Part shown: piece by piece, positions 1 to 17,499 of the stretch
Position numbering within the stretch: the stretch's first letter is position 1
Layout of the letters: the number at the start of each line of letters is the position of its first letter
From: Akkermansia muciniphila ATCC BAA-835
GTDB taxonomy: Bacteria; Verrucomicrobiota; Verrucomicrobiia; Verrucomicrobiales; Akkermansiaceae
Assembly (NCBI RefSeq): GCF_000020225.1
Contig: NC_010655.1
Span: forward strand, 810,001 to 842,000
Length of the DNA: 32,000 bases
Direction: 5' to 3'
The notes under the pieces: generated by a model
Told to the model about the DNA's origin: nothing
The model's database searches: none
Seen by the model: the letters and a program-made list of their open reading frames with translations, nothing else
Position numbers and translations under genes: made by a program

Positions 1-2282
1 CCCTCAAAACTGAGGGCGGCAATATTTCCCTGGGAGACAATTCCGTCCTGGATGGCACTACTGTTTCCGCAGAATCCGCCGACCTGAACAAAACCGTTTA
101 CAGCAATGACGGCGGCAGCTGGAATACCGTCGCAAGCACTGAAAAGCTGGGCACCATCGAAGGCAGCGTCACGCTGGGTGAAAATACTACCGTCAAGGGA
201 AATTCCACCCTGACAGCGGATGACAATATCGCCATCGGCAACAACAGCGTCATCACCGGCAATACCGCCGCTGACGGCGTGATCTCCGCAGGTGGCCAGA
301 TTTCCATCGGGGACGGTACCCAGGTCTTGGATAACACCGCCACCAGCGACGGCAAAGCCGCCATCAACCTGGCGGACGGGCAAACCCTGTACATCGGCTC
401 CGGAGCAATCCTTTCCGGCAATACTTCCAACGGCGTTTCCGGTTCCGTGCAGGCTGGCCAAAACACCCAGATCAACGTTTATACGGACGCCACCGCCTAT
501 ACCTTCATCAATGACGGCATCTCCACCACGGCCGCCGCTTCCACGGCTGACGCCGCTCCGCTGGCTGCTGACCAGACCGTCATGACGAAGACCGGAGCGG
601 GAACTCTCGTTTACGGCGGCACAGGAACCACCGATACGTTCGGAGGAACCTACCAGCAGCTTGAAGGCAACCTGATCATCGGCCATGCCACCTTCGGCGC
701 CGTTGACTCCGCCACCGGAGAAGTCGGTCCGCTCCAGTCCATTGACGGCGCCGTAATGGGGACGGACGATACTGTTTACGACATTCGGACGGGACAGGTG
801 ACCCTGGCGAAGAATTCCACCATGAAGGGAGCTTCCGCCACTTTCGGAGGCGATTCTACCTTGCTGCTGAGCGACGGGTCCGTACTGGACTTCGGCACTC
901 CCGCCACGTTCCAGGATAATTCCCGCGTAGGCATCCAGGTATCCGACGCCAGCGGCAATCCCGTTCCGCTCGCCCAACTCCGCAAGGGGACGGAAAGCGT
1001 GACGGTCACGCTGAACGGCACGGACATTTCCGGACGCCTGCTGAACAACGTATTTCTGAGCACCACCATGGCTCCGGGAACGGCGGAAGGCACCACCACC
1101 ATCACCCAGGATATGAAGGGCATTGACGGCCCCATGTCCGGCTACAACGGCAACGTTTACACCGTAGCGGCCGCTCTGGAAAACAACCGTCTGAATGTGG
1201 CCGCCGGTTCTCCCGCCGCCCAGTTCTATGAAAACCTGTTCCGGGCCACGAGCGCGGATGAAGCGGCCCGCATCATCCAGTCCGTCAGCGGTGAACACGT
1301 GGTGAACTTCACCTGGGCAGCCAGCCGCACCGTGCGGAACTTCGCCGACCTGGGGCGCATTCAATCCGCCGCCTCCATGGCACGCCAGACGGAAGACACC
1401 GTTGAAGTAGTGGACGCCAAGGGTTCTCCGATCGCCCGCAAGACAATCGCCAGAGGCAACGGCAATATCTGGGTGGGCGGCATGGGAATCTGGGATGACC
1501 AAGATGCCCGCGACGGTGTTTCCGGGTATAAGTATAATGCCGGCGGTTATGCCGTAGGCATTGACTACAAAGCCGCTCAAGGTTCCCTGATCGGCATCGC
1601 CGCCGGTCAAAGCTTCGGCAGCTTCAAGGATAAGACAGGCATCGGCGCCGACTACGACGTCGATTCCTTCCTGGCCATGATTTATGGACGCATGCATCCC
1701 TTCAGGGACAGCAAGTTCACTCTGGACGGCTACGGCGCCTACGGACGTTCCCGTTTCAAAGGTGATTCCTACATCATGGGGTCTGCCGCCAACGGCAGAG
1801 CAGATACGGACACCTTCAGCGGCGCCCTTTACGGCACCTGGACGGAACGTTTCGCACTCGGCAGGGCCTTTATAACACCTTACACGGGTATTGAGTTCAT
1901 GACTTCCGAACTCAAGGGATTCTCTGAAAGCGGACCTTATGGGCGCACCTTCGGCCACGCCCGGGCCCAGAACTGGACCATTCCTGTCGGCATTACGATC
2001 GCCCGCGCCTACCAGACGGACGGAGGCACCACCATCACCCCGGCCTTGACGGTAGCCGTATCCCAGGATGTGAGCCGCATGAATCCGAAATCCAATGTCG
2101 CCGGCCCCCTCGGAACCTGGAACGCCCGCGGCGTCAATGTTGGCCGCACCGCATTCCGTTTGAATGCCGGCATTGATGTGCTCTTCTCCAACCAGTGGGG
2201 AGCACGCGTCTGCTACCAGTTCGAGACCCGCAACAAGCTGACCGCCCACGGTATCAACGGCGCCCTCAGCTATACGTTCTAA
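1..2282 (+). CDS. Autotransporter (type Va) outer-membrane protein, 5'-truncated by the window edge; beta-helix-like passenger plus C-terminal beta-barrel translocator
   Basis: The frame of the listed ORF 279..2282 (GTG-initiated in the track) stays open back to nt 3 with no stop, so the gene starts upstream of the window. The passenger is G/N/T/S/D-rich with recurring short G-x-N/T-x-I/V/L turns. The last ~280 aa show an alternating aromatic/hydrophobic beta-strand pattern and end in GALSYTF (terminal Phe, an OM beta-barrel signature). A strong terminator follows. Confidence 0.85.
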   Translation, partial: LKTEGGNISLGDNSVLDGTTVSAESADLNKTVYSNDGGSWNTVASTEKLGTIEGSVTLGENTTVKGNSTLTADDNIAIGNNSVITGNTAADGVISAGGQISIGDGTQVLDNTATSDGKAAINLADGQTLYIGSGAILSGNTSNGVSGSVQAGQNTQINVYTDATAYTFINDGISTTAAASTADAAPLAADQTVMTKTGAGTLVYGGTGTTDTFGGTYQQLEGNLIIGHATFGAVDSATGEVGPLQSIDGAVMGTDDTVYDIRTGQVTLAKNSTMKGASATFGGDSTLLLSDGSVLDFGTPATFQDNSRVGIQVSDASGNPVPLAQLRKGTESVTVTLNGTDISGRLLNNVFLSTTMAPGTAEGTTTITQDMKGIDGPMSGYNGNVYTVAAALENNRLNVAAGSPAAQFYENLFRATSADEAARIIQSVSGEHVVNFTWAASRTVRNFADLGRIQSAASMARQTEDTVEVVDAKGSPIARKTIARGNGNIWVGGMGIWDDQDARDGVSGYKYNAGGYAVGIDYKAAQGSLIGIAAGQSFGSFKDKTGIGADYDVDSFLAMIYGRMHPFRDSKFTLDGYGAYGRSRFKGDSYIMGSAANGRADTDTFSGALYGTWTERFALGRAFITPYTGIEFMTSELKGFSESGPYGRTFGHARAQNWTIPVGITIARAYQTDGGTTITPALTVAVSQDVSRMNPKSNVAGPLGTWNARGVNVGRTAFRLNAGIDVLFSNQWGARVCYQFETRNKLTAHGINGALSYTF

Positions 2283-6853: not shown

Positions 6854-7531
6854 TTATTCTTCCGCATCGGCGCCATCATCGGAAGACTCTTCAGCAGAAA
6901 CGTCATCGGCCGTTTCTTCATCGGCGGCGGGAGCAGCGGGGGCAGGCTTGGAGTCTCCGCCCAGCCAGCCAACCATGCTGCGGGCTTCCAAGGTGTCCGT
7001 AGCGTATTGATAACCGATGAAAACAAGCGCAAAGGCAAGGGCCACAAAGGAGAGGACATTCAGCAGCGTACTGGGAGCCGCATCCGTATCTTCTTGAAAC
7101 TTCCTGGCCGTAAAGGAGGCGGAAGAAACCGGAGAGGCCGCGGGTGCGGTATTCAGCCCGATGGTGGCCTGCGGAAGCTGTGCTGTCGCCATGCCTGCTC
7201 CGGGAGGAGTCAGAGGAACAGTAGGAGCGGCAGCGGCAGGCGCCGCGCCAGCAGGAGGAACCACGGGGGCCACAGGCGTAGTGGCGGAGCCGAGGGCAAC
7301 CGTCTTTAATCCTCCGCCAAGCTTGATGCCTCCGCCAAGACCGGCGGGACGAAGGGGAATAGTGGGCGCAGCGGCGGCAGGCGGAGCAGCAGGTGCCGCA
7401 GGCGCGGCGGCTACCGGAGGAACGGCCGGAGCGGCAGGTGCCTTGGGCACGGAAGGAGCAGCCGGCGGAGTCGGAATGCTGGGCGGAGGCGGAGTACCGC
7501 CCGGAATGGAGGGGGGAGGTGGATTACTCAT
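6854..7531 (-). CDS. Pro/Ala-rich low-complexity membrane-anchored protein with an acidic C-terminal tail (hypothetical)
   Basis: About 150 aa of P/A/G/V low complexity, one clear TM helix (LLNVLSFVALAFALVFIGYQY), then an acidic tail (ADEETADDVSAEESSDDGADAEE). It ends 38 nt upstream of trxA on the same strand. The antisense frame is also open because of composition. Confidence 0.6.
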   Translation of the reverse strand: MSNPPPPSIPGGTPPPPSIPTPPAAPSVPKAPAAPAVPPVAAAPAAPAAPPAAAAPTIPLRPAGLGGGIKLGGGLKTVALGSATTPVAPVVPPAGAAPAAAAPTVPLTPPGAGMATAQLPQATIGLNTAPAASPVSSASFTARKFQEDTDAAPSTLLNVLSFVALAFALVFIGYQYATDTLEARSMVGWLGGDSKPAPAAPAADEETADDVSAEESSDDGADAEE

Positions 7532-7719
7532 ATCGGAAAAATAACTGTGCTGAACGATAGCTCTCGCTTATTTCAGCCCGTAAATCAAGAAAAAGAATGC
7601 GTAGAACCTGAATTCCGTGCAATTTTTTTTAATTTGAAGCGTATTCCATCTCAAACACGCTGTCCGGACTTGCCCTGAAAAGCGTTCTTTCCTACGCTGT
7701 GTATCCGGCATTATCTCAT

Positions 7720-8400
7720 ATGAAACCCATTACCAAACTAGCTTCCTCCACCCTGCCCGACGGCTCCGTTCTCGACCTATGGGAACGGGACGGTTTCCAC
7801 TTTCTTTTGCGCGACGGCGTACAGACAGCGTCCAGCTTTTCCCACGGAAGCAATGAAGCGGCGGCAGCCATGGCGGCGGCTCCGGTTAAAAGAGCCAACC
7901 AGCCCTCCTTCCTTCTCGACGGCCTCGGCCTGGGATTCACCCTGTTCGCCCTGATGGATCAAATTCGCAGAGAAAAGGCCCGCTTCATCGTGGCGGAACC
8001 CTGCAAACCGCTTATCTACTGGCACAAGGAACTGATGAACCAGGAACGGCCCGGATTCCTGCACGATCCCCGCGTCAGCGTGGAATTTACCCCGGCGCTT
8101 CAAATCGCCCGCAAGAATCCGAAAAGCTTCCACGCCATTCTGTCCCATTCCACGCACGAACGCATGAACCTGAGCGTAGCCGAAGCTTCCGACTATTTTG
8201 CCGCACTCAAGCAGGGCGGTCTGCTGGTCATTACGGTAGCCCGCCCGGACACCCGACTTTCCCGGACACTGCAAAAAGCGGGGTTCGAAGTAAGCACGGA
8301 AGCCGTTCCGGCCTCACATAAAGGAAAGAAAACCGCTTTTCACACCGTTATTCTTGGAAAGAAGGGACGTTTCGTCCCCTTCTCCGCTCACCAGTCCTGA
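7720..8400 (+). CDS. Spermidine-synthase-like class I SAM-binding-fold protein (short form, no N-terminal tetramerisation domain)
   Basis: The pattern LDLWERDGFHFLLRDGVQTASSFSHGSNEA ... FLLDGLGLGFTLFALMD ... FIVAEPCKPLIYWHKE ... DPRVSVEF ... FHAILSH ... ALKQGGLLVITV ... AGFEV matches the widespread bacterial spermine/spermidine-synthase-like family. ATG at 7720 is preferred over the GTG at 7699. Confidence 0.65.
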   Translation: MKPITKLASSTLPDGSVLDLWERDGFHFLLRDGVQTASSFSHGSNEAAAAMAAAPVKRANQPSFLLDGLGLGFTLFALMDQIRREKARFIVAEPCKPLIYWHKELMNQERPGFLHDPRVSVEFTPALQIARKNPKSFHAILSHSTHERMNLSVAEASDYFAALKQGGLLVITVARPDTRLSRTLQKAGFEVSTEAVPASHKGKKTAFHTVILGKKGRFVPFSAHQS

Positions 8401-8415
8401 TTCCATCCTATTATT

Positions 8416-9600
8416 ATGAACTGCACATCCCTTACCATGGCCGGACTTCTGGCCGCCCTGTCCCTGGGAATTCCCTCCCTGGCGGATTCCATTGCCCCGG
8501 GCATTCTTCTTCCCAAAAAAAATACCAAATCCATTTCCTTCTCCCCCAAGGGGACCTCGGACATTTTCCTGCTCGGAATCATGCCGCAGGGAAGTTCCGT
8601 CAAGAAAGGGGAATCCGTAGCTCAGGCGGACTTCCGCATACTGGACAATAGTATCGAAGATTATGAACGCGCCATCAAGAGCAAGAACCTGGAGGTGTTG
8701 AAACTCCGGTACGCCCTGGACCAGCAGAAGGAACGTTCCGCCCTGGCCCTGCAAAAATATCAGACGGCCCTGACACGGACGGAAGAGGATCAAAAGGATT
8801 TTCTGGAAAAACGGAAGGCCCGCATGCTGGCGGAAGAAGAGGAACGCGTCAACAAAGCCCTGCGCCACATGTCCTACAAACAGGAAGAGCTGAACCAGCT
8901 TACCAAGATGTACAAGGATGACCAGGTGGCGGAAGAAACGGAAGAGATCATTTTGAAACGCCTGAAAAATGAACTTGGGGAAAGCGAATTTGCCGTTCAG
9001 GGAGCCAAACTCGTTGCGGAACTGGCCAAGCTGCGCAATATTCATCGCCTGGGGGAAGACTATGCTACGGCAGTCAAGGAAAAGCAGATGGATCTGGAAC
9101 AGGCAAGGAAGCAGGCGGATTTTGATCTGGAACAGAAAAAGATAGCCCTGACGGAGGCGGAAGTCTCCCTGAGACGCCTTCAGAATAAGTACAATGAACT
9201 GAAAGCAGACCGGGAAATGGCCTCTTTCAAGGCCCCGGAAAACGGCATCCTGCTGTACGGCGGATATGTGGCGGACAAGTGGGTGGCCATTCCGGTGGCG
9301 GAAAAGCTGAAACCCGGCGGCAAACTGGGAGCTTTTGACAAAATCGCCACCATCGTTCCGCCAAACTCGGAACTGATTGTCCAGGCTACTCTTCCGGACT
9401 CCACCGCTACGCCCAAGGTGGGGGAAACCGTCGTCATCAAAATAACGAACATGCAGATTCCCGGCGTTATTACGGAAGCCAGCCCCATTCCGGGAGCAGA
9501 CGGCAAGCGCCGCATTATCATCACGCCCAAGGTTCCCGCCAGCCAGATTTTCGCCCCCGGCCTTCCCGTCCAGGTGACCATCAAGGACCAACAGGCCTGA
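8416..9600 (+). CDS. HlyD/membrane-fusion-protein-like periplasmic adaptor (pump partner not present in window)
   Basis: Signal peptide, then a lipoyl-like half motif (SVKKGESVAQADF), a ~200-aa heptad-rich coiled-coil hairpin, a second half motif (FKAPENGILLYG) and a beta-barrel-like tail (VGETVVIKI...GVITEASPIP). This is the standard MFP architecture. Confidence 0.72.
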   Translation: MNCTSLTMAGLLAALSLGIPSLADSIAPGILLPKKNTKSISFSPKGTSDIFLLGIMPQGSSVKKGESVAQADFRILDNSIEDYERAIKSKNLEVLKLRYALDQQKERSALALQKYQTALTRTEEDQKDFLEKRKARMLAEEEERVNKALRHMSYKQEELNQLTKMYKDDQVAEETEEIILKRLKNELGESEFAVQGAKLVAELAKLRNIHRLGEDYATAVKEKQMDLEQARKQADFDLEQKKIALTEAEVSLRRLQNKYNELKADREMASFKAPENGILLYGGYVADKWVAIPVAEKLKPGGKLGAFDKIATIVPPNSELIVQATLPDSTATPKVGETVVIKITNMQIPGVITEASPIPGADGKRRIIITPKVPASQIFAPGLPVQVTIKDQQA

Positions 9601-9619
9601 TTTCCCTTAACGGATCCCC

Positions 9620-10846
9620 ATGAATAAAGCCGTCCTTTTCCTTGCCGCCCTTGGAGCCAGTACGGCGCTCTGCGCTCCTGTTCCGGCGGAAAAAGCGGAA
9701 AAAAGGGATACCATTCCCATTGCCAGGGTTCCGGATGTTCCGCCTCCCTCCCGGGAAACGCTGGACGCTTCTATCCGGAAGGCGGCTGACTTTCTGTTGA
9801 AAGAACAGAACAGGGACGGTTCCTGGGGAAACCATACGCGCACCAAGGGTCTGAATGTTCTCTGCCCTTATCCGGAAGGCCCCAGATCATTCAGGACAGC
9901 CTCCACCTCTTTGTGCGTGATCGGCCTCCTGACCAGCCCCCTGAAAGAAGACCCCGCCGTCAAGGCATCCCTGGACAAGGCGCTGCAGTACCTGCTAACC
10001 ACGCTGCCCACCCTGAAACGGGGAGACACCCGTACCGTGCTTGGCGTATGGGGCCATGCCTACGGCCTCTCCGCCCTGAGCCGGGCGGCGCGGAACCTTC
10101 CTGCGGATGCCCCTTTGCGCGAAGAACTCAAAAAGGTGGCCTCCCTCCAAGTCAAAGCGCTGGACCAGATGGCGGACGTCCAAGGCGGCTGGGGCTATTA
10201 CACATTTGAAACTTTTTCCAAGCGTCCCATTGGAGAACCCACTTCCTTCCTGACGGCTACAGTCCTTCTTGCCTACAAGGACGCGGAACAGGCCTTTGGC
10301 CTCAAAGCGGAACCCCGCATCGTCAAACGCGCCGTCGCCTGCCTGGAAAAACTGAGGACGCCCGCCGGCAGCTACGTCTATTCCCTTTCCCATTCCTTTT
10401 ATCCCGGCAGGCCCATCAACCGCCACACCGGCAGCCTGGCCCGCACTCCCGCCGGGGATCTGGCTCTGATGCGGTATGACCCGTCCTTTATTTCCAGGAG
10501 TCAGCTGGAAGACGGCCTGGAACGCATCTGGAGCCGCGGCGGCTGGCTTTCGCTGGCTGTAAAGAAGCCCATTCCCCATGAAAGCTTTGCCCAGAACGCG
10601 GGCTATTTTTTCTATTACGGGTATTATTACGCCGCCCGCTGCCTGGAGGAAGTGACGCCGGAACACCTGGCGCGCCATGCGGCCCATCTGGCAAGCGACC
10701 TCCTGCCCATGCAGGAAGAAGACGGGTCCTGGTGGGATTACCCCCTGTACAATTACCACAAATTCTACGGCACCGGATATGCCTTATATGCCGTCTCCCG
10801 CGTCAGAGAATCCCTGTATCCCTCTGATGCGGCAACAACTTCATGA
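9620..10846 (+). CDS. Secreted prenyltransferase/squalene-cyclase-repeat (alpha/alpha toroid) protein, paralogue 1
   Basis: Signal peptide MNKAVLFLAALGASTALCA. QW-like repeats FLLKEQNRDGSWG and MQEEDGSWWDY, with GGWGYY in the middle. The periodic helical pattern is typical of terpenoid cyclase/prenyltransferase beta-subunit-type toroids. Confidence 0.72.
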   Translation: MNKAVLFLAALGASTALCAPVPAEKAEKRDTIPIARVPDVPPPSRETLDASIRKAADFLLKEQNRDGSWGNHTRTKGLNVLCPYPEGPRSFRTASTSLCVIGLLTSPLKEDPAVKASLDKALQYLLTTLPTLKRGDTRTVLGVWGHAYGLSALSRAARNLPADAPLREELKKVASLQVKALDQMADVQGGWGYYTFETFSKRPIGEPTSFLTATVLLAYKDAEQAFGLKAEPRIVKRAVACLEKLRTPAGSYVYSLSHSFYPGRPINRHTGSLARTPAGDLALMRYDPSFISRSQLEDGLERIWSRGGWLSLAVKKPIPHESFAQNAGYFFYYGYYYAARCLEEVTPEHLARHAAHLASDLLPMQEEDGSWWDYPLYNYHKFYGTGYALYAVSRVRESLYPSDAATTS

Positions 10847-10849
10847 CCC

Positions 10850-12103
10850 ATGTTCCGCCCGCTGACGACCATTTTTCTCGCCACCTTGTGCCTGCATCTT
10901 CCCGCAGCGCAGGGGGAATCCGTGCCAGAGGAAAAAACGGATGTTATTCCAATCGCCAAAATCTCGGATATTTCCCCCGCAAAACCCGGACAATTTGACA
11001 GGGCATTCCGCCGCGGCGTGGATTTCCTGCTGAAAACGCAAAATAAGGACGGCTCCTGGGGCGACCACCGGGTAATCGGCACCTGGAACATCCTCTGCCC
11101 CTACCCGGACGGGCCCCTCACCTTCAAAACAGCCAGTACCGCCCTGTGCATTGCAGGGCTCAACGCCAGCCCCCTGCATCATGAACCCGTCGTGCAGGAA
11201 GCCATGACCCGTGCTGAAGACTATCTAATCCGTACGATGCCCCATCTGAAACGCGGCGACGCTCTGTGCGTTTACAACACCTGGGCGCATACTTACGTGC
11301 TGGATGCCATGAGCATGAGGGCTGCAAGACTGGCCCCGGACAGCCTTCGCTACAGGGAACTGAAGGAATGCGCCCGCTCCCAGGTAAAAAAACTTAATGA
11401 ACTGGCTTCCGCCATGGGGGGCTGGGGCTACCTCACTTATTCCGGCTTCAGCAAACGCCCTGCGGCCCAGCCCACCTCTTTCCTGACGGGAACCGTCCTT
11501 ATCTCCGCCTGGATGGCAGGAAAATCATTCGGCCTTTCCCTTGATGATAAAATATTTACCCGCGCGCTGAAATTCCTCAAATCCCAGAGGACGCCTGCGG
11601 GAACCTATGTTTATTCCCTTTCCCATTCCTTCTATCCCGGCAGGCCCATCAACCGCCATACCGGCAGCCTGGCCCGGACTCCCGCCTGTGATTACGCCAT
11701 CAGGCTCTGGGAACCGGAGGACATCTCCCTGCGCCAGCTTGTGGACGGCCTGGACCGCCTGTGGAGCCGCAGGGGATGGCTGACGATGGCCCTGCATAAA
11801 CCAACTCCCCACGAGAGTTTCGCCCAGAATTCCGGCTATTTTTTCTATTACGGATACTATTATTCAGGAATGTGCCTGGACATGCTGGCGCCAAACCAGG
11901 TAAAGCGTCATGCATCCCTGTTGGCGGACGATATTCTCACCCGCCAGGGAACAGACGGGGCCTGGTGGGACTACCCCCTGTATAATTACCACAAATTCTA
12001 CGGCACCGGATATGCCCTGTACGCTCTTTCCCGCGCCTGGGACAAGCTGTACGGCCAACCGGAACCTTCTCCATCCTCTATTTCCACACTATCCCGGCCA
12101 TGA
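10850..12103 (+). CDS. Secreted prenyltransferase/squalene-cyclase-repeat (alpha/alpha toroid) protein, paralogue 2
   Basis: Collinear with paralogue 1 over its whole length, with roughly half or more of residues identical by eye. Same motifs (FLLKTQNKDGSWG, GGWGYL, TDGAWWDY). It starts 3 nt after the paralogue 1 stop. Confidence 0.72.
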   Translation: MFRPLTTIFLATLCLHLPAAQGESVPEEKTDVIPIAKISDISPAKPGQFDRAFRRGVDFLLKTQNKDGSWGDHRVIGTWNILCPYPDGPLTFKTASTALCIAGLNASPLHHEPVVQEAMTRAEDYLIRTMPHLKRGDALCVYNTWAHTYVLDAMSMRAARLAPDSLRYRELKECARSQVKKLNELASAMGGWGYLTYSGFSKRPAAQPTSFLTGTVLISAWMAGKSFGLSLDDKIFTRALKFLKSQRTPAGTYVYSLSHSFYPGRPINRHTGSLARTPACDYAIRLWEPEDISLRQLVDGLDRLWSRRGWLTMALHKPTPHESFAQNSGYFFYYGYYYSGMCLDMLAPNQVKRHASLLADDILTRQGTDGAWWDYPLYNYHKFYGTGYALYALSRAWDKLYGQPEPSPSSISTLSRP

Positions 12104-13245
12104 TAAATACCATGAAATCGCTTTTGGCGCTCTGCCTGTTTTACAGTGCGGCTTCCGTCTCCACCGCAGAAACCCCAATTAAACATACTTCCTTCAGACC
12201 CGGAGAAATCTGGACGGACAACAACGGCGCGCACATCAACGCCCACGGCGGCGGCATCCTGTACGACAAGGGAACCTATTACTGGTACGGGGAACACAAG
12301 GTGGAGGGGGACGCGGGAAACTATGCCCAGGTGGGGGTTCACTGCTATTCCTCCAAAGACCTCTATAACTGGAAGGACGAAGGAATCGCCCTGAAGGTGG
12401 TGGAGGGGGACCATTCCCACCCCATCGCCAGGGGCTGCATCCTGGAACGCCCCAAAGTGGTTTACAACAAAAAGACCGGAAAGTACGTGATGTGGTTCCA
12501 CCTGGAACTCAAGGGGAAAGGATATGGATCCGCTTACGCGGGGGTGGCAACGGCAGCAAAACCCACAGGGCCATTTAAGTTCCTGAAGGCCGGGCGAGTC
12601 AATCCGGGCAAATGGCCCCTGAACATGGATAAAAAGGACCAAACCATGGAGACATTCAAAGGGGTACCCGGCCTGACTTCCAGCGCACTGCCCGAAGGCG
12701 TACGTTCCGAGGATATGTTCAAGAAGGATTTTGAAAAAGGACAGATGAGCCGGGACATGACCATTTTTGTGGATGACGACGGCAAGGCCTACCACATTTA
12801 TTCTTCTGAAGAAAATAGCACAACACACATTGCGGAGCTGACACCGGATTACACGGGGCATACGGGAAAATTCGTCCGGGCATTTCCCGGACGCTTCATG
12901 GAAGCTCCCGCCATCTTCAAACATAAAGGCAAATACTATTTCATCGCCTCCGGATGCACGGGCTGGGCTCCCAACGCCGCCCGCAGCGCCGTGGCCAAAA
13001 ACATCGCCGGCCCATGGATGGAATTGAAAAATCCCTGCGTGGGGCCCAAGGCAGGCATCACGTTCGGCGGCCAGAGCACTTTCATCCTGCCCGTGCAGGG
13101 CAAGCCCGGAAAATTCATCTTCATGGCGGACATCTGGCGACCGCAAAATGCCATTGACGGCCGCTATATGTGGCTTCCCATCCAGTTTGACGGAGACCAG
13201 ATCAAACTGGAATGGAAGGACGAATGGACGCTGAAAGACATGTAG
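12100..13245 (+). CDS. Glycoside hydrolase family 43 (five-bladed beta-propeller), copy A; possibly exo-beta-1,3-galactanase-like subfamily
   Basis: Signal peptide, then TDNNGAHINAHGGGILYDKGTYYWYGEHK, ILERPKVVYN..GKYVMWFH, RDMTIFVDDDGKAYHIYSSE, FMEAPAIFKHKGKYYFIASGCTGW and GKFIFMADIW. These are repeated propeller-blade motifs characteristic of GH43. The ATG at 12100 overlaps the upstream stop (ATGA); the alternative start is 12112 (MKSLL). The subfamily guess comes from remembered similarity of the AHGGGI..GTYYWYGE block and is unverified. Confidence 0.8.
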   Translation: MINTMKSLLALCLFYSAASVSTAETPIKHTSFRPGEIWTDNNGAHINAHGGGILYDKGTYYWYGEHKVEGDAGNYAQVGVHCYSSKDLYNWKDEGIALKVVEGDHSHPIARGCILERPKVVYNKKTGKYVMWFHLELKGKGYGSAYAGVATAAKPTGPFKFLKAGRVNPGKWPLNMDKKDQTMETFKGVPGLTSSALPEGVRSEDMFKKDFEKGQMSRDMTIFVDDDGKAYHIYSSEENSTTHIAELTPDYTGHTGKFVRAFPGRFMEAPAIFKHKGKYYFIASGCTGWAPNAARSAVAKNIAGPWMELKNPCVGPKAGITFGGQSTFILPVQGKPGKFIFMADIWRPQNAIDGRYMWLPIQFDGDQIKLEWKDEWTLKDM

Positions 13246-14375
13246 TACGTTTACCTCCAATACATATGAAAATATTAACAGCCATCCTTTCCGCTAATCT
13301 GGCATGCTGCCTTTTCTCCGTTGCCGCAGCAGAAACCCCAATTAAACACACCTCCTTCAGACCCGGGGAAATCTGGACGGACAACAACGGCGCGCACATC
13401 AACGCCCACGGCGGCGGCATCCTGTACGACAAGGGAACCTATTACTGGTACGGGGAACACAAGGTGGAGGGGGACGCGGGAAACTATGCCCAGGTGGGGG
13501 TTCACTGCTATTCCTCCAAAGACCTCTATAACTGGAAGGACGAAGGAATCGCCCTGAAGGTGGTGGAGGGGGACCATTCCCACCCCATCGCCAAGGGCTG
13601 CATCCTGGAACGCCCCAAAGTGGTTTACAACAAAAAGACCGGAAAGTACGTGATGTGGTTCCACCTGGAACTCAAGGGGAAAGGATATGGATCCGCTTAC
13701 GCGGGGGTGGCAACGGCAGCAAAACCCACAGGGCCATTCAAGTTCCTGAAAGCCGGGCGAGTCAACCCGGGCAAATGGCCCCTGAACATGGATAAAAAGG
13801 ATCAGACGACCGAATTCACCAAGGAAATGCCCGACTACGTCCGCATCATCCGCAGGGACTATCCCGGCGGGCAGATGAGCCGGGACATGACCATTTTTGT
13901 GGACGACAATGGAAAAGCCTACCACATCTATTCCTCGGAAGGCAATATCACCCTTCACATCGCGGAGCTGACGCCGGATTACACGGGGCATACGGGAAAA
14001 TATGTCCGGGCGTTCATCAACCGTTACATGGAAGCTCCTGCTATTTGCAAACACAAGGGCAAATACTATCTTATCGCTTCCGGATGCACGGGCTGGGCTC
14101 CCAACGCCGCCCGCAGCGCCGTGGCCAAAAACATCGCCGGCCCATGGATGGAATTGAAAAATCCCTGCGTGGGGCCCAAGGCAGGCATCACGTTCGGCGG
14201 CCAGAGCACTTTCATCCTGCCTGTACAGGGCAAACCCGGAAAATTCATCTTCATGGCGGACATCTGGCGGCCCAAAAACGCCATTGACGGCCGTTACCTG
14301 TGGCTGCCCATGAAATGGGAGGGTGACCAGATTATCCTGGAATGGAAGGATGAATGGACGCTGGATGACCTGTAA
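12166..14375 (+). repeat. Tandem direct duplication (~1.13-1.16 kb period) comprising the two GH43 genes
   Basis: 12166-12637 matches 13329-13800 (offset 1163) with only a handful of substitutions by eye. 12951-13100 matches 14081-14230 (offset 1130) without any difference I can see. The segment between is divergent and includes a net 33-nt length difference. Confidence 0.9.
13266..14375 (+). CDS. Glycoside hydrolase family 43, copy B (tandem paralogue of copy A)
   Basis: Same motifs as copy A. The ATG at 13266 gives signal peptide MKILTAILSANLACCLFSVAAA; the track start at 13212 overlaps copy A and adds no signal peptide. Confidence 0.8.
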   Translation: MKILTAILSANLACCLFSVAAAETPIKHTSFRPGEIWTDNNGAHINAHGGGILYDKGTYYWYGEHKVEGDAGNYAQVGVHCYSSKDLYNWKDEGIALKVVEGDHSHPIAKGCILERPKVVYNKKTGKYVMWFHLELKGKGYGSAYAGVATAAKPTGPFKFLKAGRVNPGKWPLNMDKKDQTTEFTKEMPDYVRIIRRDYPGGQMSRDMTIFVDDNGKAYHIYSSEGNITLHIAELTPDYTGHTGKYVRAFINRYMEAPAICKHKGKYYLIASGCTGWAPNAARSAVAKNIAGPWMELKNPCVGPKAGITFGGQSTFILPVQGKPGKFIFMADIWRPKNAIDGRYLWLPMKWEGDQIILEWKDEWTLDDL

Positions 14376-14394
14376 ATTTATCTCCTTCCTTTTT

Positions 14395-14868
14395 ATGCAG
14401 GATACGGTTTATTGCTTCCATCTCCTTGCCGGAAGGCAGAAGCGGAGCCTTCTGTATGCCTTGTGCTCCGCTCTCCTTGTTGCAGCAGTCTGGCTGCTTC
14501 ATCCGGAATGGCCTTTCTGGGCGGGCTACATTGCCTGGGCACTCGCTTACGCGGCAACGCTGATTGTTCAACACACCATTCCCCTTCCCATCCGCTGCCC
14601 GCACTGCGGAAACGCCGGGCTTTATTCTGCTCCGCAAACTCCGGAAGAACAAAGAAGGCCGGATACAGGCATCATGCTGGAATGCCGGGGTTGCGGTTCC
14701 ACCTTTTACACGGACGCCTATTTGCCCTGGCCGGGAAAAATTATCCGCCGGCGCCCCACTTGCCCGGAAGAATGGGAAGAAAAATCTGCCCGTAAACAAG
14801 CCGGGCCCGCTTCCTCCGGAGAGGAACGCAGGCCGGAAAGGTCTTTCGTCAACGGAGGAAAAATCTAA
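14395..14868 (+). CDS. Small membrane protein with a C-terminal zinc-ribbon (hypothetical)
   Basis: The ATG at 14395 lies 19 nt after the GH43-B stop. Two hydrophobic helices (LLYALCSALLVAAVWLL, AGYIAWALAYAATLIV) are followed by CPHC-x32-CRGC and a basic/acidic tail. There is no family recognition. Confidence 0.5.
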   Translation: MQDTVYCFHLLAGRQKRSLLYALCSALLVAAVWLLHPEWPFWAGYIAWALAYAATLIVQHTIPLPIRCPHCGNAGLYSAPQTPEEQRRPDTGIMLECRGCGSTFYTDAYLPWPGKIIRRRPTCPEEWEEKSARKQAGPASSGEERRPERSFVNGGKI

Positions 14869-15284
14869 CGGGCTTTTTTGGAAGCCATCACGTAATTCCT
14901 CATGCGCTGGTCTGCGGGGGTGGTGGGGCGCACGCTGGTAACCCAATTGCCGTCCTTATCCTTCTTTTTGATTTCCGTTCTGTCGCGGTACAATTTCGCG
15001 GAGAAATCGCTGGAATCAAGAACAACCGGCCCCGGACCTGTCGTGACAATGGGAGTGGGAGGAACCTCCGCAACCACCGTCATTGGAGCGGCAAGGGAAT
15101 TATACCAGTACACCAGTTCCTGCTGGCCGACAGGATCGTCCGGATAAGGAGCATAAGCTCCGTTATTGGTGGAAACCTTTACATAGGCCGGTTCCGGAAA
15201 TGTGGTCTGATAGGAAGAGGGGGAACAGGCCCCCAACAACAAAAGGCCGGCTCCGCCGGCAATAATCATGGAATGCAGTTTCAT
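14865..15284 (-). CDS. Lipoprotein (hypothetical)
   Basis: MKLHSMIIAGGAGLLLLGAC carries a lipobox (LLGAC). It is convergent with the upstream cluster, and the stop codons overlap (cta/taa at 14865-14868). Confidence 0.65.
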   Translation of the reverse strand: MKLHSMIIAGGAGLLLLGACSPSSYQTTFPEPAYVKVSTNNGAYAPYPDDPVGQQELVYWYNSLAAPMTVVAEVPPTPIVTTGPGPVVLDSSDFSAKLYRDRTEIKKKDKDGNWVTSVRPTTPADQRMRNYVMASKKAR

Positions 15285-15458
15285 ATAGGCATTGGACTCT
15301 CTTCCGCCACCTGCCGTTCAGAGGATGTACGGTTCCGGAATATTACGGGCACCCGCGCGTCTTGCACTTGAGCGCCATTCCCAGCGCCGTACGCCATCAT
15401 GCGGAGGAAAGGAGCTTGCCGTCCCCCCGGCGGCATGGTTGAATATTATTTCCTCTCC

Positions 15459-16358
15459 ATGATTACGGATTTCCGGCTGAAAGTGTTTGAAACCGTCGCA
15501 CGGCGCCTGAATTTTACGCGCGCGGCGGAAGAACTGTTCATCACGCAGCCGGCCGTCACCCGGCATATCAAGGAACTGGAACGTCTGCTGGATGCCCGTC
15601 TGTTCAAAAGGGAGGGACGAGGGATTGCCCTGACGGCGGAAGGCGTGCGCCTGCTGGCCCATTCCCGCCGCATCCTCAAGGAATACGAAACGCTGGCTGA
15701 AGAAATATCCTTTGGCCGCAATTCCCCTGTTTCCGGCGAATTGAGCCTGGGAGCCAGCTCCACCATGTCCCAGTATGTGCTGCCTCCGCTGCTGGCCCTG
15801 TTCAACCGCCATTACCCGGAAATACGCATATGGCTGAAAAGCGGCAATACGGAGGAAATAGAACAGGCCGTCCAGGATGAATCCGTGCAGCTTGGCATCG
15901 TGGAAGGCACGGCAACGCGCGCGAACCTGCATTACCAGCCATTTATGGAGGACGAAATTATTCTGGCAGGAGGCATGCAGGCCGCCGTGCCCAGTGAAGG
16001 GCTTTCCCTCCCGCAACTCTCCCATGTGCCCCTGATCATGCGTGAACCGGGGTCCGGCACGCGTCGGGTGGTGGAGGAAGCGCTGAAAAAACACGGGATC
16101 TCCGTTTCCGGCCTCCATGTTCTGATGATGCTGGGCAATACGGAAAGCATCAAAATGTATCTGGAGCATTCTCCGGCGTGCTCTTTTCTCTCCTCCCTTG
16201 CTGTCCGGGGAGAATTCAAACGCGGAAGTTTGAAGAAAATACATCTTCGCCACCTGGAAATTCGCCGCACCTTCCACTTCGTCTCAGGACATGGAGACCA
16301 CAGCAGAATCAATGAACTGTTCATCAAGTTCTGCCGATATTATTATAACAAAATTTAA
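15459..16358 (+). CDS. LysR-family transcriptional regulator
   Basis: N-terminal HTH MITDFRLKVFETVARRLNFTRAAEELFITQPAVTRHIKELE, followed by a LysR substrate-binding-domain pattern. The ATG at 15459 matches the family N-terminus; the track start at 15399 is upstream. Confidence 0.9.
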   Translation: MITDFRLKVFETVARRLNFTRAAEELFITQPAVTRHIKELERLLDARLFKREGRGIALTAEGVRLLAHSRRILKEYETLAEEISFGRNSPVSGELSLGASSTMSQYVLPPLLALFNRHYPEIRIWLKSGNTEEIEQAVQDESVQLGIVEGTATRANLHYQPFMEDEIILAGGMQAAVPSEGLSLPQLSHVPLIMREPGSGTRRVVEEALKKHGISVSGLHVLMMLGNTESIKMYLEHSPACSFLSSLAVRGEFKRGSLKKIHLRHLEIRRTFHFVSGHGDHSRINELFIKFCRYYYNKI

Positions 16359-16392
16359 TTGGCTATAACAATTTTTAATTAGATTTTATAAT
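16344..16392 (+). promoter_or_regulatory. Two 17-bp direct repeats spaced 20 bp apart plus a TATAAT box; candidate LysR operator and promoter for the downstream YeiH-family gene
   Basis: tataacaaaatttaatt (16344-16360, overlapping the LysR stop codon) and tataacaatttttaatt (16364-16380) are 15/17 identical. TATAAT lies at 16387-16392, with a poor -35 overlapped by repeat 2. The function is inferred only. Confidence 0.4.
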
Positions 16393-16476
16393 GGCTGCAT
16401 CGTATATTATTCCGCAGCCAATTCGGTACGCTCCCGGCCAGATACAACGGGCAGCCGCAACCATCATTTACCGACC

Positions 16477-17499
16477 ATGTCTCCCAAACATCTAGCCAAT
16501 CCCCTCCACGGCATCCTGCTTATTGTTCTGTTTTCCTTTTCCGCTTTTTACATTGCTGATTTTGAATGGGTGAAACATCTTTCCCTCAGCCCGCTGATCG
16601 TCGGCATCGTGCTGGGAATGCTTTACGCCAACAGCCTGCGCAACCACCTTCCGGAAACATGGGTTCCCGGCATTCAGTTCTGCACCAAGCAGGTTTTGAG
16701 AACAGGCATTGTCCTGTACGGATTCAAACTGACTTTTCAAAGTGTCATCGACATCGGCGGCTCCGCCCTGGCGCTCGACCTTATTGTGGTCACTCTCACC
16801 ATTCTTCTGGGAGCCGGGCTGGGGCGCCTGCTGAAAATGGACAGGGACACGGCCCTGCTGACCTCCATCGGCAGTTCCATTTGCGGGGCAGCAGCCGTTC
16901 TGGGGGCGGAACCCGTCGTCAAAAGCAAACCTTACAAAGCCGCTGTGGCCGTTTCCACCGTGGTCATCTTCGGCACGCTCTCCATGTTTCTGTATCCAGC
17001 CCTGCACCGGGCCGGAATACTGGATCTGACGCCGGAACAAATGGGGCTTTTTACCGGAGCCACCCTTCATGAAGTGGCGCATGTGGTGGGCGCCGGCAAC
17101 GCCATGGGGCAAGCTATTTCCGATCCGGCCATTATCGTCAAAATGATCCGGGTAATGATGCTGGCCCCGGTGCTGGTCGTCCTGAGCATTGTCCTGGCCC
17201 GGAGGGACCCCTCTTCCGGAGCAAACGGGGAAAAACGGAAAATTACCATTCCCTGGTTCGCCTTCCTGTTCCTTGCCGTCATTGGCTTTAATTCCCTGCA
17301 CCTGCTGCCTGCCGGACTTGTGGACGCCATAAACACCCTGGATACATTCCTGCTGACCATGGCGATGACGGCCCTGGGCGCGGAATCCAGCTTTGAGAAG
17401 TTTAAAAAAGCCGGAGCGCGGCCTTTCCTGCTTGCAGGCTTCCTGTATATCTGGCTTTTCTTCGGAGGTTACTGGCTGGTCAAGCTGATCAGCCTCTAA
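16477..17499 (+). CDS. yeiH: YeiH/UPF0324-family membrane protein (putative sulfate-exporter family transporter)
   Basis: About 10 TM helices with family-typical blocks SPLIVGIVLGMLYAN, TKQVLRTGIVLYGFKLTF, GSSICGAAAVLG and GATLHEVAHVVGAG. It is adjacent to a LysR regulator, as yeiE/yeiH are in E. coli. Confidence 0.82.
   Translation: MSPKHLANPLHGILLIVLFSFSAFYIADFEWVKHLSLSPLIVGIVLGMLYANSLRNHLPETWVPGIQFCTKQVLRTGIVLYGFKLTFQSVIDIGGSALALDLIVVTLTILLGAGLGRLLKMDRDTALLTSIGSSICGAAAVLGAEPVVKSKPYKAAVAVSTVVIFGTLSMFLYPALHRAGILDLTPEQMGLFTGATLHEVAHVVGAGNAMGQAISDPAIIVKMIRVMMLAPVLVVLSIVLARRDPSSGANGEKRKITIPWFAFLFLAVIGFNSLHLLPAGLVDAINTLDTFLLTMAMTALGAESSFEKFKKAGARPFLLAGFLYIWLFFGGYWLVKLISL

Follow-up and report, generated by a model that had tools for sequence, protein, structure and literature searches.

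A 32,000-nucleotide (nt) stretch of the Akkermansia muciniphila ATCC BAA-835 chromosome (GCF_000020225.1, NC_010655.1, positions 810,001 to 842,000; hereafter the window, with coordinates counted from its first letter) carries two adjacent genes, A and B, that encode secreted enzymes of glycoside hydrolase family 43 (GH43), subfamily 24. Their nucleotide sequences form a mosaic in which nearly identical blocks alternate with diverged segments, and this mosaic was caused by gene conversion and not by recent duplication. The duplication itself predates the radiation of the A. muciniphila species group, and in other strains a single hybrid gene, shorter by exactly one repeat unit, is established. 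The explanation as a whole, an old tandem duplication followed by recurrent partial gene conversion and by deletion hybrids, leaving two diverged enzymes of which B is neo-functionalised, is in our judgement very probable.

Mosaic identity of two tandem GH43 genes

Genes A and B were compared by codon alignment and exact offsets and divided into a signal-peptide region and five segments (S1–S5), as follows.

12100–13245, forward strand: gene A (Amuc_0697), secreted GH43 subfamily 24 protein of 381 amino acids (aa) with a long loop of ancestral type; identified by open reading frame (ORF), Pfam, PDB match and structural model
13266–14375, forward strand: gene B (Amuc_0698), secreted GH43 subfamily 24 protein of 369 aa with a short, derived loop; identified by ORF, Pfam and PDB match
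12100–12165, forward strand: signal-peptide region of A, not homologous to that of B (13266–13328); 40% nt identity, 14 sites grouping by paralogue and 0 by genome
12166–12638, forward strand: S1, conversion tract 1 in A; partner 13329–13801, offset +1163; 7 differences in 473 nt, synonymous divergence (dS) 0.06
12639–12741, forward strand: S2, paralogue-specific loop of A (…TMETFKGVPGLTSSALPEGVRSEDMFKKDFEKG); partner 13802–13871 in B (…TTEFTKEMPDYVRIIRRDYPGG)
12742–12948, forward strand: S3, moderately divergent; partner 13872–14078, offset +1130; 82% identity, dS 0.90
12949–13091, forward strand: S4, conversion tract 2 in A; partner 14079–14221, offset +1130; 143 nt identical, dS 0
13092–13245, forward strand: S5, paralogue-specific 3′ end of A; partner 14222–14375, offset +1130; 84% identity, dS 0.69
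13329–13801, forward strand: conversion tract 1 in B, offset 1163 from A
14079–14221, forward strand: conversion tract 2 in B, offset 1130 from A

Across 1044 ungapped sites the two genes differ at 103. Those in S1 lie at 12186, 12189, 12204, 12431, 12576, 12588 and 12603, and a single one, in codon 12430, changes an amino acid (R/K). A first-pass annotation, made by eye from the letters, had described 12166–12637 and 13329–13800 as nearly identical with one R/K change, and the alignment bears this out (7 differences in 472 nt). It had also called 12951–13100 and 14081–14230 identical; these intervals are nearly so, but synonymous differences at 13092 and 13095 place the end of the identical block earlier. 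Its reading of the intervening region was accurate: the two loop peptides differ by a net 33 nt (in frame, 12643–12741, 33 aa, vs. 13806–13871, 22 aa), the motif differences DDDG/DDNG, EENSTT/EGNITL and FPGRF/INRY are correct, and the signal peptides are unrelated in this genome. In S2 the copies share 53% identity apart from the 33-nt (11-codon) indel, and dS is saturated. The longest identical runs between A and B (226, 144 and 143 nt) were reached in 0 of 20,000 permutations, where the largest run was 128 nt, and third codon positions alone gave the same outcome; the mosaic is thus not due to chance.

Gene conversion and the age of the duplication

A sample of 61 Akkermansia genomes was searched for relatives of the pair, and further species representatives (L011–L014) were added. 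A gene of GH43 subfamily 24 (GH43_24) occurs in only 7 of the 61 and is therefore accessory in the genus; three of the seven have the tandem pair and four a single copy. The pair is also present in the four added representatives and is restricted to the A. muciniphila group. Both copies, each with its own loop type, were found in G007, G035 and L011–L014, so that at least seven Akkermansia species carry the pair overall. Because these species have both loop types in common while the outgroups are single-copy, the duplication is older than the radiation of the species group.

Within the BAA-835 genome, A and B are 98.5% identical in S1 and 100% in S4, vs. 81–88% for orthologues in sister species (81–86% in S4). 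In the S2 loop the relation is reversed, with 53% identity between A and B vs. 85–89% among orthologues. Synonymous sites follow the same pattern: dS between orthologues is 0.5–0.7 in S1 and S4 (0.51–0.70 in S1), vs. 0.06 and 0 between A and B, and constraint at the codon level therefore cannot explain the identity of the paralogues.

Maximum-likelihood trees were built for each segment, and quartet site patterns were counted against G035 and against G007. The trees place A and B of the same genome together in S1 (90% support) and S4 (70–85%), and unite all B copies in one clade in S2 (99%), S3 (100%) and S5 (80%). Sites supporting a grouping by genome or by paralogue were distributed as follows (by genome : by paralogue).

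S1: 36:0 (G035), 36:0 (G007)
S2: 0:25 (G035), 0:22 (G007)
S3: 9:12 (G035), 6:14 (G007)
S4: 16:0 (G035), 13:0 (G007)
S5: 1:10 (G035), 3:7 (G007)

The pair thus displays the hallmarks of concerted evolution, with paralogues more similar than orthologues in the tracts, synonymous sites homogenised, a duplication that predates the homogenised tracts and segment phylogenies that disagree. Sister species show the same tracts with older or weaker homogenisation (15–42 differences in S1, 9–23 in S4). Independent complete two-copy A. muciniphila chromosomes have the same mosaic as the window (2–8 differences in S1, 0–2 in S4), and the arrangement in the reference is accordingly not an assembly artefact. 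The first-pass annotation had left open whether gene conversion homogenises the flanks or a loop was replaced after a recent duplication; the switch of quartets and trees between segments upholds the former, and the occurrence of both copies, each with a conserved loop, in at least seven species contradicts the latter.

The 5′ limit of homology or conversion varies between species, as in G007 (L004/L009) and L014 the signal peptides of B and A are alike (60% nt identity vs. 40% in the window).

Copy-number change and hybrid genes

Metagenome assemblies were scanned for the locus, and the loci, from strains 98–100% identical in the flanks, were classified and painted at the A/B diagnostic sites of the window. 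Four arrangements were distinguished by the distance between the flanks.

2276 bp: A and B
1113 bp (2276 minus 1163): one hybrid gene only, with the crossover in S1
1146 bp (2276 minus 1130): one hybrid gene only, with the crossover in S4
2309 bp: A together with a B copy whose loop is that of A

When repeats exceed the assembly k-mer in length they can collapse into products of exactly this kind, which makes hybrids from short reads unsafe; short-read metagenome contigs were consequently not counted as evidence for hybrids, and only a form present in complete chromosomes was taken as established.

The S1 hybrid is established by this standard. It joins the 5′ end and signal peptide of A to the body of B in an intact gene of 370 aa, and it occurs in single-contig chromosomes of 2.73–2.99 Mb, including CP027003.1 (2.73 Mb) and CP072046.1 (2.79 Mb) at NCBI, as well as in a 2.79-Mb metagenome contig. 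The hybrid locus of L170 aligns at 99.3% to 9100–12638 and 13317–17375 of the window; its flanks are collinear, and it is short by precisely one repeat unit of 1163 bp. The prediction that direct repeats of this kind would drive copy-number change is borne out by these complete chromosomes, in which a single hybrid gene remains and one repeat unit is gone. The exact 370-aa protein was found in 5974 sample blocks, of which 38 have contigs longer than 1 Mb, vs. 148 for the exact A protein, and this imbalance fits the published poor conservation of Amuc_0697 among strains; the exact B protein was found in 659. S1 hybrids carry polymorphisms of their own and mostly fall into one flank-haplotype clade (90%), although the exceptions L159 and L130 suggest more than one origin.

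The other two variants, the S4 hybrid and the B copy with the A loop, come solely from short-read assemblies, some of which have flanks identical to those of two-copy strains, and are treated as provisional. It could be argued that all of these variants are repeat-collapse artefacts and that the locus is stable in nature, and for these two forms the assemblies in which they occur are what such an account would expect. As an account of the locus as a whole we consider it very improbable, since the S1 hybrid is found in single-contig chromosomes, has its own polymorphisms and a largely clade-restricted distribution, and since the nonsense allele described next is common to seven metagenome contigs, one of them 3.0 Mb long.

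That allele marks a single-hybrid lineage (L115–L119, L146 and L157) in which TGG is changed to TAG (W91*) at the position equivalent to 12370–12372. Given a nonsense allele in a hybrid lineage, some strains probably have no working copy. Within S3, about 15 diagnostic sites in the same lineage form a patch of A type.

In L092 and L174–L179 the second copy keeps the B signal peptide and 3′ end, but its loop and S3 match A with 0 differences in 312 nt. An exact copy of this protein is present in 65 sample blocks, all short-read assemblies; the form reflects either conversion over a long tract or a mistake in assembly. A distinct lineage of Akkermansia sp. (L015 and L097) contains a single hybrid in which A-type sequence gives way to B-type at the end of S3, after the FPGRF motif and before ICKHKGKYYL; this hybrid was seen only in metagenome-assembled genomes.

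Direction of divergence in the loop

The B-type loop is almost unchanged in all species that bear the pair, as is the A-type loop, and dN/dS of the loop within each paralogue is 0.01–0.05. Long loops resembling that of A are present in the single-copy outgroups, among them A. glycaniphila and a genome of the Verrucomicrobiales; this identifies the loop of B as the derived one. Fixed differences between A and B were polarised with four outgroups. Eight in S2 were assigned to B, 2 to A and 13 were ambiguous; the corresponding numbers were 5, 1 and 2 in S3, 3, 0 and 0 in S5, and 0, 0 and 0 in both S1 and S4. On this comparison B is the derived copy, and its loop appears to have arisen in situ from the ancestral A-type loop by two deletions and substitutions, rather than by replacement with foreign sequence.

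Enzyme family and the residues encoded by each segment

Both proteins match Pfam PF04616 (GH43) well above the cut-off of 32.2 bits (A, 76.2 bits, E = 3.6e-21; B, 72.6 bits), and the best PDB match of each is 6EUG, the enzyme BT3683 (A, E = 2e-130; B, E = 1.3e-126). As AlphaFold run on the single sequence of A was unusable (pLDDT 35), an AlphaFold2 model was built from a 42-sequence alignment (pLDDT 91.4, pTM 0.92). In Foldseek searches this model of A is a five-bladed β-propeller with TM-scores of 0.88–0.92 to 6EUG and 6EUH, and the top nine rows are all GH43_24 structures (6EUG, 6EUH, 6EUF, 3VSF in two chains, 7BYS, 7BYX, 7BYV and 5FLW). The structural model is of A only, to which B is 90% identical. 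By sequence and family matches, A and B belong to GH43 subfamily 24, of the exo-β-1,3-galactanase/galactosidase type.

The roles of active-site residues in this subfamily were set by work on Pc1,3Gal43A and BT3683, with Glu208 as acid, Asp158 as pKa modulator and Gln263 as base, the conserved Gln functionally replacing the canonical base Asp (PMC7939473). In both A and B the motifs MEAPA, SRDM and GGQST align to Glu208, Asp158 and Gln263 of Pc1,3Gal43A, respectively, and are invariant in the 42-sequence alignment; the −1 subsite residues Glu57, Glu102, Arg103, Tyr126 and Trp229 are also kept in both copies (YWYGE, ERPKV, GYGSA and CTGW) and are likewise invariant in that alignment. By alignment, in Pc1,3Gal43A numbering, S1 encodes Glu57, Glu102/Arg103 and Tyr126, and S4 encodes Trp229 (CTGW) and the catalytic-base Gln263 (GGQST). 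S2 and S3 together hold the insertion loop and the conserved pKa-modulator Asp, as well as the plus-subsite triplet and the residues around the catalytic acid Glu. The triplet aligned to Asn179-Asn180-Gln181 of Pc1,3Gal43A (+1/+2 subsites) is E-N-S in A, G-N-I in B and D-N-L in BT3683, and the four residues preceding the catalytic acid are PGRF in A vs. INRY in B.

BT3683 (6EUG/6EUH/6EUI) is the nearest characterised enzyme, with 54% identity, the fold similarity given above, the same catalytic Glu, Gln and Asp, the same −1 subsite and an insertion loop at the same place. It differs in the sequence and length of that loop and in the triplet, and it acts on arabinogalactan, whereas the Akkermansia enzymes have no known natural substrate. 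The insertion loop is absent from the other solved GH43_24 enzymes BT0265, Ct1,3Gal43A and Pc1,3Gal43A (6EUF, 3VSF and 7BYS) and is the most length-variable part of the family alignment. A published model has the loop of A protruding toward the active site (PMC11790493), and a change of substrate specificity by the loop is plausible on structural models. Since the homogenised parts comprise the galactose-binding −1 subsite and the catalytic Gln, and the protected parts the loop, the plus-subsite triplet and the neighbours of the acid, A and B probably share the sugar that is cleaved off (the glycone pocket) and differ in the aglycone accepted. B would then be a neo-functionalised copy with a specificity distinct from that of A.

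Proposed mechanism and alternatives

A GH43 subfamily 24 gene was duplicated in tandem before the A. muciniphila species group radiated, and we propose that homologous recombination between the resulting 1.1-kb direct repeats underlies both conversion and deletion. Non-reciprocal gene conversion has repeatedly homogenised 12166–12638 and 12949–13091 with the matching tracts of B, the latest events having occurred within the A. muciniphila lineage, and in-register unequal crossing-over, or an equivalent deletion between the repeats, would drop one repeat unit and leave a hybrid gene. The in-register products, together with general knowledge of repeat recombination, point to this pathway.

Conversion halts at the loop, over the next ∼200 nt and at the 3′ end, most likely through heterology and selection acting jointly. 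At the loop, the 33-nt indel and ∼47% mismatch may block heteroduplex extension. Selection may also keep the two enzyme variants apart by purging convertants, since each loop type is strictly conserved from one species to the next, and tract boundaries would in part be its product. Should the B copy with the A loop prove real, the barrier would be mainly selective.

Several observations weigh against parts of this explanation. Positive selection on the loop is not demonstrable, because synonymous sites between A and B are saturated there and dN/dS cannot be interpreted. The B copy with the A loop, if real, shows that conversion can cross the loop and that heterology is not an absolute barrier. 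Strains with one isoform or with the nonsense allele show that keeping both enzymes is not essential. Finally, a published screen yielded no natural substrate of A or B, the sole activity being that of Amuc_0698 on p-nitrophenyl galactoside (pNP-Gal) (PMC11790493).

Other explanations of the mosaic fare considerably worse. If the duplication were recent, and the copies near-identical except for a replaced or fast-evolving loop and its neighbouring segments, the very low divergence of two blocks and their sharp boundaries would follow directly; the spread across species led us to reject this idea, which has very little to recommend it when the same two loop types recur in at least seven species, the B-type segments form a clade at 99–100% support, dS between A and B in S3 and S5 (0.7–0.9) is as large as between species, and orthologues differ by 12–19% in the very blocks that are near-identical here.

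A programmed variation system, in which a cassette-like switch makes enzyme diversity on demand, might be invoked for the several recombinant forms in the population, but is similarly hard to credit: there are only two loop alleles, each conserved across species at the low dN/dS given above, the repeats are direct and not inverted, and lineages are fixed for one form or another instead of mixing them. The two conserved alleles and the direct orientation of the repeats were the grounds on which it was rejected. No recombinase was present among the Pfam domains listed for the called genes at the locus, although no search aimed at a recombinase in the neighbouring genes was made.

Least credible of all is very strong purifying selection on the catalytic core without recombination, which would accord with the invariant −1 subsite residues encoded by the blocks but was rejected on the homogenisation of synonymous sites (dS 0.06 and 0 vs. 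0.5–0.7 between orthologues) and on the grouping of all 36 and 16 informative sites by genome.

Surroundings of the gene pair

The reading frame of gene B is open from an ATG at 13212, inside the 3′ end of gene A. Public gene calls use the ATG at 13266, 20 nt past the stop codon of A, which yields a normal signal peptide and a protein of 369 aa, and this is most likely the true start; the ATG at 13212 is less likely. The closest relatives of both genes are all from Akkermansia. Directly upstream of A lies a second pair of genes.

9620–12103, forward strand: two tandem secreted alpha/alpha-toroid paralogues, identified by ORFs and weak PF13243 matches

These comprise 9620–10846 (408 aa) and 10850–12103 (417 aa), with a weak match to the squalene-hopene cyclase C-terminal family, and they adjoin the GH43 gene or genes in every strain examined. 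They are ∼75% identical over ∼450 nt (10354–10802 vs. 11587–12035) and so give no sign of recent conversion between them. The second gene ends in a stop codon that overlaps the start of A. A promoter and terminator scan of 7400–15500 was uninformative, with 0 promoter-like sites and terminator-like sites at chance level. As no promoter-like or terminator-like site lies between A and B, the two genes are probably co-transcribed with the upstream genes.

Relation to known systems and significance

Concerted evolution of bacterial paralogues by gene conversion is well known, for example in tufA/tufB of enterobacteria. The present pair resembles such cases in that copies in one genome are closer to each other than orthologues are, synonymous sites included, and in its discrete tracts. 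It differs in that A and B are adjacent direct repeats, that conversion is partial and spares a functional segment, and that the same repeats yield deletion hybrids. Hybrid genes arising by unequal crossing-over between tandem paralogues are likewise a general phenomenon, and the S1 hybrid, with in-register loss of exactly one repeat unit and an intact hybrid ORF, does not differ from them in principle. The locus is thus a tidy, textbook-type case of partial concerted evolution and of clear but ordinary repeat recombination, of moderate-to-low general interest and not a new principle, and it adds an example of tandem-paralogue hybrids in the glycan-degrading repertoire of a gut symbiont.

The same two genes were described by Bakshani et al. 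(Nat Microbiol 2025; PMC11790493; bioRxiv 10.1101/2024.03.27.586211), who reported 87% identity between Amuc_0697 and Amuc_0698 and a loop difference near the active site, gave the name Amuc_0697 to the long-loop enzyme of the BAA-835 pair, and noted that it is poorly conserved among strains. That paper compares the proteins only; it covers neither the mosaic at nucleotide level nor gene conversion, does not date the duplication and does not link the poor conservation to hybrid genes. In the literature searched, no description of the A/B nucleotide mosaic, its gene conversion, the duplication age or the hybrids was found elsewhere. What is new here is the mechanism, the pair, its 87% identity, the loop and the poor conservation of Amuc_0697 having already been published.

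A broader proposal, which we advance only tentatively and regard as rather less probable than its negation, is that the unconverted segment sets two aglycone specificities and that recombination between the repeats causes A. muciniphila strains to vary naturally in their enzyme repertoire. If this were true, the coexistence of strains with both isoforms, with the B type only, possibly with the A type only, or with none would account for part of the variation between strains in glycan foraging. A. muciniphila is under probiotic development, and strain differences in its use of mucin and other glycans are of practical interest. The ∼310-nt segment and the C-terminal ∼50 residues that distinguish A from B could help in the search for substrates, and the practical value of the findings would lie there and in strain typing. 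For one such strain difference they offer a simple mechanistic reason: many strains have a fused gene, and some a broken one.

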